DNA from: a virus
Taxonomy: Duplodnaviria > Heunggongvirae > Uroviricota > Caudoviricetes
DNA length: 4,562 bases
Direction: 5' to 3' (one strand)
Virus record (IMG/VR): IMGVR_UViG_2913177423_000003
Span: 1 to 4,562 of that record
Below the pieces are notes generated by a model. The model was not told the DNA's origin. It saw only the letters and a program-made list of their open reading frames with translations, and searched no databases. The translations under genes were made by a program, and so were the position numbers. This document shows, in pieces, positions 1 through 4,562 of this stretch (position 1 is the first letter of the stretch; every line of letters begins with the position of its first letter).

Positions 1-114
1 AAAGATCCCCCTGTTGAGCACAACTAACACCTGGAGCGCACGCCAGACTTTCAACGGTGGGATCACCGGGACGCTGACGGGGAACGCCGACACCGCGACG
101 AAATTAAAAACAGC
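1..114. repeat. Left inverted repeat (IR-L); coding, specifies the conserved junction peptide of the fibre
   Basis: Hand alignment with the reverse complement of 4449-4562: mismatches only at positions 22, 23, 37, 58 and 91. Identity decays after about position 114. The outer 21 bp are identical. Confidence 0.9.
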
Positions 115-2020
115 ACGGAAGATTAATAACGTGCTGTTTGACGGTTCTAAAGATATTTCGCTGACGCCTGCGAACCTTGACGTCACCAGCCTGACGTTTA
201 TGAAAAACAACGGCGAAATGCCGCTTGATGCCGACCTGAACACATTTGGTCCCGTTAAGGATTATGTGGGTGTCTGGTATAAATCCACATCCTCCAACGC
301 AACACTGGAGAAACATTTCCCGGAAGACGGTGCCGTAGGTGTTCTTGAGGTATTCAATGGCGGTAATTTTGCAGGAATGCAGCGTTACACCACCAGGACT
401 GGCAATGTTTATATGCGCAACCTTTCTGGTTCCTGGAATGGCTCTGACGGCCCGTGGAGTTACTGGCGACAGATTCAGTCAGCAACACGCTCTCTGAGTA
501 CAACCATTGACCTGAATACGCTCGGAGGCGCAGAGCATCTTGGTTTATGGCGAAACAGTAGCGGCTCTATCGCTTCATTTGACCGCAACTATCCGGAAGA
601 AGGGAGTTATGGTCAGGGACTCCTTGAAGTTCTTGAAGGTGGTGGGTACTCACGCACGCAACGCTACACGACCCGCCGAGGGAATGTATATGTTCGATGT
701 CTTTCTGCTACATGGAATGCAGAGAATCCACAGTGGGAACCGTGGTCAAGAGTGGGCCATCAGTCAGAGTGTCGTTATTACGAAGGGGATTTGAATGTTC
801 TAACCGACCCCGGCATTTACAGCGTTACAGGGAAGGCAACAAACGGTCCAATGCAGGATACCGCTGGAGCAACACTGCTTGGGATACTGGAAGTAATCAG
901 ACGTTTTGATGGTGTGTCTGTTTGGCAGCGTTACACAACCACAGGGAAAGCAGAAACCACACAGGGGCGTACTTTTGAGCGCGTCTACGCCGGGAGCAAA
1001 TGGACCGAATGGCGAGAAGTATATAACTCCTTTTCGTTGCCCCTGAATCTGGGTATTGGCGGCGCAGTGGCAAAACTCACCAGTCTGGACTGGCAGACCT
1101 ACGATTTTGTGCCGGGCAGTCTGATAACCGTTCGGCTTGATAACATGACCAACATTCCCGACGGTATGGACTGGGGCGTCATTGATGGCAACCTGATAAA
1201 CATCGCAGTTGGTCCGAGTGATGATTCCGGTACGGGGCGCTCAATGAAGGTATGGCGCAGCACTGTAAGTAAAGCGAACTACCGTTTCTTCATGGTGCGC
1301 ATCTCAGGAAATCCGGGAAGCCGAACGATCACGACAAGACGAGTGCCGATAATTGACGAAGCCCAGACATGGGCAGCGAAGCAAACCTTCAGTGCTGGCC
1401 TTTCTGGTGAGCTGTCCGGCAATGCTGCTACAGCTACAAAGCTGAAAACCGCGCGAAACATTAATGGTGTCAAATTTGATGGTTCCAGCGATATAAATAT
1501 TAATACGCTGGTATCCCGGAATCGCGTCACTGCATTAAGCGGGAATGCAAAGGGGACGCCTGGTATCCAGATGTATGAGGCATATAACAATGGCTACCCT
1601 TACGCCTATGGCAATGTGCTTCATCTTACGGGTGTGTCCGCAGTTGGAGAAGGTGAGTTACTTATCGGCTGGAGCGGCACCAGTGGGGGATACGCGCCAG
1701 CATATATCCGTTCAAGGCGAGATACAGATGATGCTCAGTGGTCTGGATGGGCGCAAATTTATACAACAGCTCATAAACCCTCGGCAGGTGATATTGGCGC
1801 TTATACCGCCGCAGAATGTAATTCGCGTTTTATTACAGGTATTCGCTTAGGTGGTTTGTCATCCCTTCCAACGTGGAATGGTACTGGCTGGCATGACAGG
1901 TCAGGGCATGTTCTTACTGGTGTTGTCAATAGTAATACTGATGAATTAATTGATATCGCGCAGGCAAGACCTGTTCAGTATTGTATTAATGGCACATGGT
2001 ATAACGCGGGAAGTATTTAA
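2..2020 (+). CDS. Tail-fibre protein, variable C-terminal portion (alternative A); 5'-partial, continues upstream of the window
   Basis: The 668-aa ORF from the track stays open in frame to position 2 (aag atc ccc ctg before the TTG at 14), with no Shine-Dalgarno sequence before that TTG. It contains the tail-fibre repeat motif [17 protein letters not shown] twice (about aa 23 and 469) and three tandem units of about 90 aa with the core LEV-(13-14 aa)-QRYTT--GN-Y-R. Stop TAA at 2018-2020. Confidence 0.85.
221..1024 (+). repeat. Three tandem, diverged units of about 90 codons inside fibre alternative A
   Basis: Protein units about aa 70-160, 161-250 and 251-337. LEV cores at aa 111, 204 and 292, each followed by QRYTT then G-Y-R and W--W. 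Confidence 0.7.
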
Positions 2021-2022
2021 TT

Positions 2023-2550
2023 ATGATGCATTTAAAAAACATTAAAGAAGGCAATCCCAAGACCATTGAACAATATGAGTTAACCAAACGATTTAATATT
2101 GTCTGGTTATGGTCAGATGATGACAAAAACTGGTATGAGGAACAGAAAAACTTTCAGGATGATACTTTAAAAATGGCCTACGACGAGAACGGTATTATTC
2201 GTTGTATTGAGAAAGATGTGTCAATGATCAATCCTGATGGCTTGAGTGTTGTTGAGTTACCGAATATAACCGCCAACCGTCGCGCGGATATTTCTGGTAA
2301 CTGGCTGTTCAAAGATGGCACTGTAATCAAACGGATTTATACCCAAGATGAACTACAACAACAGGCGGAGTTACAAAAAAACACCTTGCTTTCAGAAGCT
2401 GAATTAGTCATTCAGCCGCTGGAACGCGCTATTAAGCTAAATATGGCTACTGATGATGAACGCGCCCGGCTGGAAGCATGGGAACGCTACAGTGTTCTGG
2501 TGAGTCGAGTAGATACCGAAAACCCTGAATGGCCTGATAAACCAGAATAA
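2023..2550 (+). CDS. Tail-fibre assembly chaperone (Mu U / P2 G-like family, as recalled)
   Basis: 175 aa starting MMHLKNI, with a GGGAAG Shine-Dalgarno-like sequence 9 nt upstream. It starts 2 nt after the fibre stop. The C-terminus ...[29 protein letters not shown] is the characteristic tail of tail-fibre assembly proteins. Stop TAA at 2548-2550. Confidence 0.85.
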
Positions 2551-2557
2551 TAATTAT

Positions 2558-2573
2558 GGCCCGATGTTGGGCC
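2558..2573. terminator. Candidate stem-loop in the spacer between the convergent chaperone genes
   Basis: GGCCC-gatgtt-GGGCC (5-bp GC stem, 6-nt loop) lies 8 nt after the + strand chaperone stop. Only TT follows, so it is weak as an intrinsic terminator. Confidence 0.2.
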
Positions 2574-2669
2574 TTCGAATGGTGGTTCTGGGACCAATAT
2601 CGCTTGTGGATTAATACCTTGATGCACCGGAGGTAGCAGATATATCCAGTGCACCATATATTGAATGGT

Positions 2670-3272
2670 CTACGCCTCTGGCAGTTCAGGCCAGAGGACA
2701 TCCGGCGCGGTGCTGGTATCTGTTACCGTCACCGCGTCAATGTAATCCAACACGATGTTTAGTCGGGTGGATTCCGTTTGCGTCAGCTTCCGCCCTGCCT
2801 GTAATTTCAATTGAATTAGACTGATAGAAGCCATTGCAGCATCAATCAATGACTGGCGCTGTGCTTCTGCCGCTTCTACTGCGGCATTGTGTTGTGCCTC
2901 GGTGTCTGTCACCCATTTCTCACCATCCCATTTATCATATGGCGTTAACGGGGCGATGGTGGTTGTATTTTCAGGATAATCCCCCGGTGCTGTGATTTCT
3001 TTTGATTCTCCTGTTTCGGTGCTATAAACGATTTCACCGCGATGGTCTGGCACATACTCCCATGAATTTAAATCTGCCGAACGGCAGATAGCATAACCCG
3101 CCTTATGTGTGCTAGGAGCATCTAAACAGGAATTGGCCGGAATGCCAACACCAACAGCAAGATATTCAGTTGATGCAGATATATATTCTAATGTTTCGCT
3201 ATCATAGTTATGAACGATAATATTTCCTGCCTGTACGGCAATAAGTTCATTATTCAATATCGCGTTATCCAT
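2670..3272 (-). CDS. Tail-fibre assembly protein (lambda Tfa-like type)
   Basis: 200 aa. GIPANSCLDAPS and SWEYVPDHRGEIVYSTETG resemble lambda Tfa GLPANSTDIAPP and SWHLVEDHRGKTVYDVASG (recalled from memory). The C-terminus TDTSTAPDVLWPELPEA resembles Tfa VDTSTAPDIEWPAVP. The ATG at 3270-3272 overlaps the stop of the upstream fibre ORF (TAATG). Stop TAG at 2670-2672. Confidence 0.85.
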   Translation of the reverse strand: MDNAILNNELIAVQAGNIIVHNYDSETLEYISASTEYLAVGVGIPANSCLDAPSTHKAGYAICRSADLNSWEYVPDHRGEIVYSTETGESKEITAPGDYPENTTTIAPLTPYDKWDGEKWVTDTEAQHNAAVEAAEAQRQSLIDAAMASISLIQLKLQAGRKLTQTESTRLNIVLDYIDAVTVTDTSTAPDVLWPELPEA

Positions 3273-4561
3273 TATGCAGCTCTCACAATATAATTAAATG
3301 ATGTATTACGTGGTCGCATAGATATCCATACGCTATTAAAATTATCTTCTGCTGTTCTTTGTGTGCCTGTAACTGAGTTATCAGCCGAAGCTGGAACATA
3401 GTCACTGTTATCCCCGGCTTTAGCACCAGAAGGCATTCCGATTATTTGCGCTTTATCAGCGGAAGCAAATGCTATACCAACCTTGACAGAAGTAGCCACG
3501 TCAACCCCGTAATAATCCTGTAACGCTGTGCGAATAAGTGTTGCATCCTGATTACTGAGTAGTGATCGTCCACTGTCTACACCACGTCCATCATCCCAAC
3601 CACGGATAAACTCACCGCGTAAATCAGGTAATTTACCGGTAGTGTATACCTTGGCAAGCTGAGGGTATTTTTCCATATCAAAGGCAGCGCCATTGCATTT
3701 CAGCCAGCCTGTCGGAGGCGTGGCGGAAGGCCACGGCAAGGGGACGCCTACGGGAATGATTTCGATATTTGCGCTACCGTTAAATGATACGCCGCTGATT
3801 GCGCGAGCGGTTTGCAACTTTGTAGCCGTTGCTGCATTACCTGTCGTATTTTGATTTCCCGTAGTGTTAACGCCAGGCAAGTTAATATTTGCAGTCCCAT
3901 TGAATGACACGCCTCCTATAGTTCTTGCGGTTTGCAATTTTGTTGCAGACGCCGCATTTCCTGTAGTGTTCTGGTTTCCTGTTGTATTTACACCAGGAAT
4001 CGAATCTTTAGATGTATAAATTTGCGCCCATTCTGACCACTCGGCAGTCGTTACATCTCGTCGAGAACGGATATAACTTGGAGCATGTGCACCACTTGTG
4101 CCACTCCAGCCAATCAGGAGTTCCCCCTCTCCGACAGAGGTTGCACCTTTAAGATGAACAACGTTTCCGTATGTAGTGGGATAACCATTATTGCTAACTT
4201 CATACATCTGGATACCCGCTGATGCTCCCTGTGTGGCACCAGTTAAGGCGGTAACACGCCCGCGACCAACGAGAGTATTGATACTAATATTTTTGGTTCC
4301 ATCAAATGACACACCATTAATACTGCGCGCTGTTGCCAGTTTTGTCGCGGTTGCCGCATTACCAGTGGTGTTCTGGTTTCCTGCGGTGTTTACACCAGGG
4401 AGGTTGATGTTTGTAGAGCCATCAAATGCCACACCACCGATCGTGCGGGCTGTTTTTAATTTCGTCGCGGTATCGGCGTTCCCCGTCAGCGTCCCGGTGA
4501 TCCCGCCGTTGAAAGTCTGGCGTGCACTCCAGGTGTTAGCCGTGCTCAACAGGGGGATCTT
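3272..4561 (-). CDS. Tail-fibre protein, alternative variable C-terminal portion (alternative B); 5'-partial, continues beyond the window end
   Basis: The 425-aa ORF stays open in frame to 4561. It starts with the same junction peptide as alternative A, followed by four copies of the fibre repeat (about aa 23, 63, 198, 240). A collar-type receptor-binding motif follows: TGWLKCNGAAFDMEKYPQLAKVY...GKLPDLRGEFIRGWDDGRGVDSGR (about aa 268-345). Confidence 0.85.
   Translation of the reverse strand, partial: KIPLLSTANTWSARQTFNGGITGTLTGNADTATKLKTARTIGGVAFDGSTNINLPGVNTAGNQNTTGNAATATKLATARSINGVSFDGTKNISINTLVGRGRVTALTGATQGASAGIQMYEVSNNGYPTTYGNVVHLKGATSVGEGELLIGWSGTSGAHAPSYIRSRRDVTTAEWSEWAQIYTSKDSIPGVNTTGNQNTTGNAASATKLQTARTIGGVSFNGTANINLPGVNTTGNQNTTGNAATATKLQTARAISGVSFNGSANIEIIPVGVPLPWPSATPPTGWLKCNGAAFDMEKYPQLAKVYTTGKLPDLRGEFIRGWDDGRGVDSGRSLLSNQDATLIRTALQDYYGVDVATSVKVGIAFASADKAQIIGMPSGAKAGDNSDYVPASADNSVTGTQRTAEDNFNSVWISMRPRNTSFNYIVRAA
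3821..4402 (-). repeat. Tail-fibre repeat units with a recurring PGVNT(A/T)GNQNTTGNA linker inside fibre alternative B
   Basis: Three linker copies on the - strand at about 4343-4399, 3941-3997 and 3821-3877. Hand comparison of two copies gave about 80 percent nucleotide identity; the longest exact shared run seen was about 16 nt. Confidence 0.7.
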
Positions 4562-4562
4562 T
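4449..4562. repeat. Right inverted repeat (IR-R), partner of 1-114
   Basis: Same alignment as IR-L. Read on the - strand it encodes [39 protein letters not shown], against [39 protein letters not shown] at the left end. Confidence 0.9.

Follow-up and report, generated by a model that had tools for sequence, protein, structure and literature searches.

The window examined here, i.e. the whole 4562-bp draft contig RHJQ01000048.1 of GCA_004211995.1, carries one fibre-plus-chaperone cassette on each strand, and the two cassettes converge on a 119-nt spacer (2551-2669) between their chaperone genes (Table 1). The plus-strand chaperone shares 71-86% amino acid identity with 80 viral loci and the minus-strand, tfaE-type chaperone 86-90% with 80 viral loci. 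Apart from the contig of the window itself, an exact-protein look-up for the two chaperones returned a single Logan contig. Four repeats of ~80-115 nt lie in the minus-strand fibre gene (3763-4486) at a spacing of 120 nt; they form two pairs and are 70-75% identical; the two fibre genes also have in common a 204-nt inverted homologous block (1562-1765 / 4013-4216) that is 71% complementary.

Table 1. Features of the 4562-bp window in order of position.
Feature	Coordinates	Strand	Remarks
Terminal inverted repeat, left arm	1-156		Partner arm 4407-4562; 156-nt arms, 86% complementary
Fibre gene	14-2020	+	Upstream partner of the 175-aa chaperone
Tail-fibre assembly chaperone, P2 G / P1-Mu U type	2023-2550	+	175 aa; Pfam Caudo_TAP, E 1.8e-35
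Linker TAATTAT	2551-2557	+	Joins the stop codon to hairpin 1; Mu/D108/P1 have AAATTAA in its place; kept in L136
Hairpin 1, GGCCC-gatgtt-GGGCC (GGCCCGATGTTGGGCC)	2558-2573		Probably a degenerate form of the bidirectional terminator hairpin found between U and U'
Junction stretch	2577-2594		18 nt; holds most of the TGGT-N6-ACCA dyad (2583-2596)
Pseudogene fragment	2595-2698	+	Degraded 3'-terminal ~105 nt of a 'short' Caudo_TAP chaperone gene (~146 aa); the last 29 nt lie over the 3' end of the minus-strand chaperone gene
Hairpin 2	2620-2656		Relic of a 14-15-bp inverted repeat that intact short tfa genes have within their coding region
tfaE-type tail-fibre assembly chaperone	2670-3272	-	200 aa; Pfam Caudo_TAP, E 5.1e-31; convergent with the plus-strand chaperone
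Fibre gene with Collar domain	3272-4549	-	Partner of the 200-aa chaperone

The terminal repeats match mainly P1-like plasmids of ~90-100 kb, 142 of the 147 matching places being plasmid-borne, and the sequence of the window ends is absent from the P2-like/Mu-like loci L003 and L008. Plasmid p15648-1 (L175) has, immediately beyond the point equivalent to the start of the window, both a recombinase gene and the cix-like site CTAAACCTTGGTTTAAGAGAA. Because the terminal repeats match P1-like plasmids beside a recombinase gene and a cix-like site, we read the window as the inner part of an invertible tail-fibre segment of the Cin/Gin type, which most likely belongs to a P1-like phage-plasmid. The crossover site of p15648-1 (L175:6963-7000) is placed ~17 nt outside the window-start point and adjoins the recombinase gene. 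Short-read assembly broke inside the terminal inverted repeats, within which the contig ends.

The preliminary description had taken the spacer to be non-coding, which is borne out by stop codons in all three plus-strand frames. Both of the symmetric elements it had singled out are present, namely the GC hairpin GGCCCgatgttGGGCC (hairpin 1) and the TGGT-N6-ACCA dyad, the latter starting 10 nt past hairpin 1, with the two centres 24 nt apart, and having a negligible folding energy (-3.8/-2.6 kcal/mol). That the spacer might instead encode a small RNA or a small protein, or serve as a promoter or a secondary cix-like site, is scarcely conceivable given that all plus-strand frames are closed, that an Rfam 15 scan of 2400-2800 at E<=10 yielded a best score of 13.9 bits against a gathering score of 35 with all E-values above 1, and that neither a promoter-like site nor a cix-like site (an AAACC-NN-GGTTT dyad with flanking half-sites) was found in the spacer. 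The one cix-like match in the window, at 2376-2397 inside the tfa gene, is at chance level (2.1 expected).

Hairpin 1 starts 7 nt past the stop codon of the plus-strand chaperone gene (2548-2550), between two Caudo_TAP genes. The contig has just one other 5-bp all-GC hairpin with a 3-8-nt loop, and a 5-bp all-GC hairpin arose in 0.4% of 20,000 shuffles of the spacer. The hairpin is homologous to the element AATTAAGGCCCG-loop-CGGGCCTT: positions 2551-2576 align without gaps to the U/U' spacer of P1-like elements (score 30, p<=0.001 from shuffles), with 21 of 26 positions identical by a hand count from the local alignment. The 3' end of the plus-strand chaperone gene has ~84% matches in more than 600 complete-genome E. 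coli records, and these alignments extend past its stop codon and across the hairpin before breaking off at 2575/2576. In P1-like plasmids and Mu-like prophages the gap between U and U' is 28 bp long and has the sequence aaattaaGGCCCGATAGCGGGCCttctc. Among the 80 IMG/VR loci with the plus-strand chaperone type, GGCCC..GGGCC occurs within 40 nt of the stop codon in 64, and in 61 of these 64 a GGCCCG-loop-CGGGCC hairpin is accompanied by a convergent ORF of at least 100 codons 24-30 bp away; a few of the 80 have an unrelated GC hairpin with a T-tract (GGCGGGCGGATTGCCCGCCTTTTCTTT) in the place of hairpin 1. In the record of phage D108 (GQ357916) the hairpin is annotated as a rho-independent terminator on each strand, and the scan tool that we applied to the window flags both strands of the D108 hairpin as well. 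Bidirectional termination thus presumably was the ancestral role of hairpin 1. In phage Mu, the 3' end of the P late transcript was reportedly mapped to the U-U' gap by Zha, Zhao & Howe in 1994; other Mu and SfMu papers that we consulted contained nothing specific on this gap.

At 8-25 nt past the tfa stop in loci L012-L091, the 4-nt loop of hairpin 1 is found in both orientations between identical flanks (GGCCCGATAGCGGGCC, GGCCCGCTATCGGGCC), and palindromic (ATAT) and shortened variants are also present; this suggests that the loop was inverted, either by template switching or because the quasi-symmetric ends of U and U' recombined. A P2-like phage (L004:4113-4170) and a P2-like prophage (L007:3666-3881) have no invertible segment, yet both carry hairpin 1 followed by a ~38-nt relic of the U' 3' end, to which the prophage adds a fragment of a helix-turn-helix gene, perhaps the C-terminal end of an invertase; by their sequence, both look like scars of a lost invertible segment.

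Most of the remaining spacer has a different parentage. When compared with nt 336-441 of the intact LWY24 gene, positions 2595-2698 show 81% identity and a score of 63 against 16.7 +/- 2.2 for shuffles (p<=0.001), and the relic peptide YLDAPEVADISSAPYIEWSTPLAVQARG matches YLDALELVDTSSVPDIEWPTPPAVQAR* in BL21. The frame of this remnant is broken by an in-frame stop and a 1-nt deletion, neither the start nor the upstream part of the gene is left, and the old TGA of the displaced chaperone is now GGA at 2696-2698. By our own reading, the same substitution alters the tfaE-type chaperone on the other strand: close to its C-terminus, the window encodes Leu and relatives encode Ile. About 2200 E. coli records match 2451-2769 only from 2588-2607 onward, with two tail-fibre assembly genes under the match. 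In the P2-like prophages of BL21, C4 and LWY24, a plus-strand chaperone gene of ~146 aa occupies the position of this remnant and overlaps the convergent tfaE-type gene by 29 nt, and the same 29-nt overlap with a convergent ORF, free of any spacer, is seen in 71 of the 77 usable IMG/VR tfaE-type loci. The convergent ORF lies only 58, 290, 290 or 354 nt away in four of the other loci, some of which keep just a truncated piece of short tfa beyond the tfaE stop, and the last two have no convergent ORF within range. Between the two homologous parts, the junction stretch, tested as the 35-nt segment 2577-2611, resembled neither parent significantly (p 0.33 and 0.12).

The division into two parents has one counterpoint, since the short tfa gene, too, aligns to positions 2556-2585 once a 9-10-nt gap is allowed (ATGGCCCG...TTGG.C.T..GAA.GG; score 25, p 0.002), and the existence of this alternative alignment leaves the position of the junction and the parentage of hairpin 1 less than fully certain. 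Taken at face value, it would make everything from ~2556 on a remnant of short tfa, in which a 9-10-nt deletion within ATGGCCCGGTAAAGCCGCTATTGGTCGTCTGAAAGG created by chance a hairpin that merely resembles that of U/U'. The segment 2551-2576 does reach the above score against the short tfa gene, ATGGCCCG is common to both sequences, and by our own count the next 20 nt after the gap are ~70% identical. The gap-free U/U' match is nevertheless the better of the two and is contiguous with homologous coding sequence; moreover, the linker TAATAATTA(T) is common with the IMG/VR locus L136 and resembles TAAAAATTAA of D108/P1, all of which makes a purely short-tfa origin quite unlikely. The origin of hairpin 1 from the U/U' element is therefore retained in what follows, and the same linker is the reason to suppose that the incoming chaperone gene brought its own 3' flank with it.

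Two further loci share the scar. Plasmid pSBF45b (L176) and the IMG/VR contig 3300045988_132327 (L136) have the same 3' end of the plus-strand chaperone gene, CCTGATAAACC[AG]GAATA, and have in common with the window the derived remnant characters GGATTAA-TA, GGAGGnAGnAnATAT and CCATAT. Hairpin 1 is missing in both. In L136 the linker TAATTAT is preserved and followed directly by sequence that begins 5 nt ahead of hairpin 2, which leaves a 58-bp spacer, and on pSBF45b (L176:3466-3578) the stop codon of the G/U-type chaperone gene is lost, so that the gene reads into the scar and encodes 178 aa. The convergent tfaE-type gene of pSBF45b appears truncated, with an ORF of only 144 aa. The absence of hairpin 1 from both loci indicates that it is dispensable in the scar lineage, and with the order of events resting on three loci we infer that the window form is ancestral and that the deletions in L136 and L176 are derived.

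These relatives also bear on the trivial explanation that the junction is an assembly artefact, a chimeric short-read contig built across a repeat. The contig is indeed short and ends in inverted repeats, and no place in the complete E. coli genomes covers at least 80% of 2451-2769. A closed plasmid (pSBF45b) and an IMG/VR contig (L136) belong to the same scar lineage, and an identical 119-nt spacer occurs in a second, independent assembly (Logan SRR8068136), rendering an artefact very improbable. The exact junction is rare, since the 22-mer GTTGGGCCTTCGAATGGTGGTT that spans it had no match in genome contigs or viral contigs. Elsewhere, at the centre of the segment of p15648-1, the convergent chaperone genes are separated by an AT-rich cargo that includes a serine acetyltransferase gene (L175:9209-10312), hairpin 1 staying beside U' and the other chaperone gene having its own hairpin and T-tract. 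On these sequences, the segment centre seems to be a hot spot of insertion and exchange.

A further question is whether the spacer acts as a functional bidirectional transcription stop that blocks read-through from the expressed into the silent cassette in either orientation, as had been tentatively proposed in the preliminary description. Hairpin 1 in the window has only five GC pairs, to which the plus strand alone adds a G.U pair, against 6-9 pairs and about -14 kcal/mol in the canonical stem, and its energy amounts to -10.8 (plus strand) and -10.9 (minus strand) against -14.4/-14.2 kcal/mol; the stem is weakened without being abolished. The further claim that it lacks a U-tract holds for the plus strand, whose tail TTCGAATGGTGG fails the terminator scan; on the minus strand the tail ATAATTATTATT is terminator-like in a simple scan, which the minus-strand version passes weakly (ATAATTATTA). 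Hairpin 1 is not a canonical intrinsic terminator, there being no U-tract on the plus strand and an interrupted A/U tail on the minus strand, and it would be an eroded copy of the U/U' hairpin whose plus-strand T-rich tail was lost at the recombination junction. The fold of 2540-2680, for which energies no better than those of shuffled controls had been named as counting against a stop, gives a similarly divided picture: on the plus strand it is no better than the controls (z -1.53; 16 of 200 shuffles equally stable), and on the minus strand it is marginally better (z -2.35; 7 of 200), the minus-strand excess coming mostly from hairpin 2.

Several observations speak for such a stop, comprising the homology of hairpin 1 to a D108 hairpin that is annotated as two terminators and flagged on both strands, the conserved central position of the hairpin in 61 of 80 loci, the unrelated GC hairpin with a T-tract found at the same place in a few loci, which suggests selection, the minus-strand version that passes the simple scan, and the transcript end said to have been mapped in the corresponding gap of Mu. 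They are opposed by the shortened stem with its reduced energy, by a plus-strand tail that reads TTCGAATGG where D108 has TTGTTTCATTCT, by a plus-strand fold at the level of shuffles, and by the deletion of the hairpin in L136 and L176; a dedicated stop would also be dispensable, because 71 of the 77 tfaE-type loci overlap and have no spacer at all. The proposal thus stands as regards the ancestry of the hairpin (61/80 loci, the D108 annotation) and falls short for this particular spacer, the bulk of which is pseudogene, with a weakened stem, a replaced plus-strand tail and relatives in which the hairpin is lost. We consider a functional two-way stop unlikely; given that hairpin 1 is weakened here, that its plus-strand tail is gone and that it is deleted in the two closest scar relatives, the termination role is better placed in the ancestor, and in the window hairpin 1 would be at best a weak, mainly minus-strand stop.

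The strongest structure of the spacer is hairpin 2, which the preliminary description had passed over. Its stem, TGCACCGGA/TCCAGTGCA, comprises 9-12 bp (12 pairs on the minus strand, two of them G.U), its energy is -17.9 kcal/mol on the minus-strand RNA and -12.5 kcal/mol on the plus-strand RNA, it begins 13 nt beyond the minus-strand chaperone's stop codon, and neither strand has a U-tract. For the intact form the energy lies between -25 and -28 kcal/mol; in L003:4006-4053, 12-13 nt past the overlapping tfaE stop, it attains -27.7 kcal/mol, a stability matched by only 0.02% of 5000 synonymous recodings of the same 16-residue peptide (mean -12.0, sd 4.3). Among 37 unique sequences the stem is almost invariant, and the sole variable terminal pair shows all four combinations. 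Hairpin 2 is kept in all three scar loci (window, L136 and L176), in which, by our own reading, arm versus loop divergence shows no clear excess of arm conservation. It is tempting but doubtful to regard hairpin 2 as a selected nucleic-acid element rather than a coding residue, namely a terminator, RNA-stability element or processing signal that needs no spacer. Selection of this kind could explain why hairpin 2 survives in the scars while hairpin 1 was lost, but quasi-palindrome correction by template switching could give the same pattern without selection. In our opinion, the strong hairpin concealed in the coding region of intact short chaperone genes is the sole point here that might be worth an experiment.

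Taken together, the spacer is very probably a mosaic scar, left by a recombination junction in the middle of an invertible tail-fibre segment of the Cin/Gin type and made up of a degenerate U/U' hairpin and the stump of a displaced chaperone gene. A P2 G / P1 U-type fibre-plus-chaperone cassette (14-2550) would have replaced an earlier plus-strand cassette, carrying along its own 3' flank, i.e. the small GC two-way rho-independent terminator hairpin of U/U'. The displaced gene would have been a ~146-aa chaperone gene that ended 29 nt inside the convergent tfaE-type gene, and its ~105-nt stump would have been left behind to decay because its removal would damage the overlapping tfaE gene; the stump still contains what appears to be the long internal hairpin of the displaced gene (hairpin 2). 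The present-day spacer would be mostly passive. Minus-strand transcripts are predicted to contain hairpin 2 and then hairpin 1 with its AUAAUUAUUAUU tail, which could result in weak termination or protection of the 3' end, and on the plus strand, since the U-rich tail of hairpin 1 is gone, read-through is probably ended by Rho rather than by hairpin 1. In either orientation of the segment, what is transcribed beyond the expressed chaperone gene is untranslated antisense RNA, which is expected to be subject to Rho-dependent termination, thereby limiting read-through, and such a limit fits the missing spacer in most tfaE-type loci. The spacer may still retain a residual role as a terminator or stabiliser.

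These findings have little importance in themselves: the feature is an ordinary mosaic scar with a degenerate copy of a terminator hairpin that is already known and annotated in D108. They do provide a worked example of tail-fibre cassette exchange at the centre of invertible host-range segments, in which the leftovers of the exchange are a terminator hairpin imported with the gene and the stump of a displaced gene that is shielded by its overlap with a neighbour. For annotation, the spacer should be recorded as a pseudogene fragment with a degenerate terminator hairpin and not as a new regulatory element.

In comparison with known systems, hairpin 1 corresponds to the U-U' hairpin of the Mu/D108 G segment and of the P1/P7 C segment, which likewise lies at the segment centre, 7-10 nt past the stop codon of the G/U-type chaperone gene, and with the Mu/D108/P1 element it shares the core sequence AATTA-GGCCCGAT...GGGCCTT. 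The window differs from these systems in its stem of five GC pairs plus a possible G.U pair (-10.8 versus -14.4 kcal/mol) and in a spacer of 119 bp where theirs measure 24-30 bp; relative to D108 in particular, the T-rich plus-strand tail TTGTTTCATTCT has given way to TTCGAATGG, and the minus-strand T5 run of TTAATTTTTATT is broken in ATAATTATTATT. The other half of the locus is like the overlapping pair of BL21-type P2-like prophages, the minus-strand gene and the 105 nt past its stop codon being homologous, the overlap region 2670-2698 being ~95% conserved with respect to the BL21-type short tfa/tfaE pair, and the internal inverted repeat being retained; in contrast to that pair, the plus-strand partner is dead in the window, where only its last ~105 nt are left and a different chaperone gene lies upstream. 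Finally, the scars of pSBF45b and L136 are without hairpin 1, whereas the window retains it.
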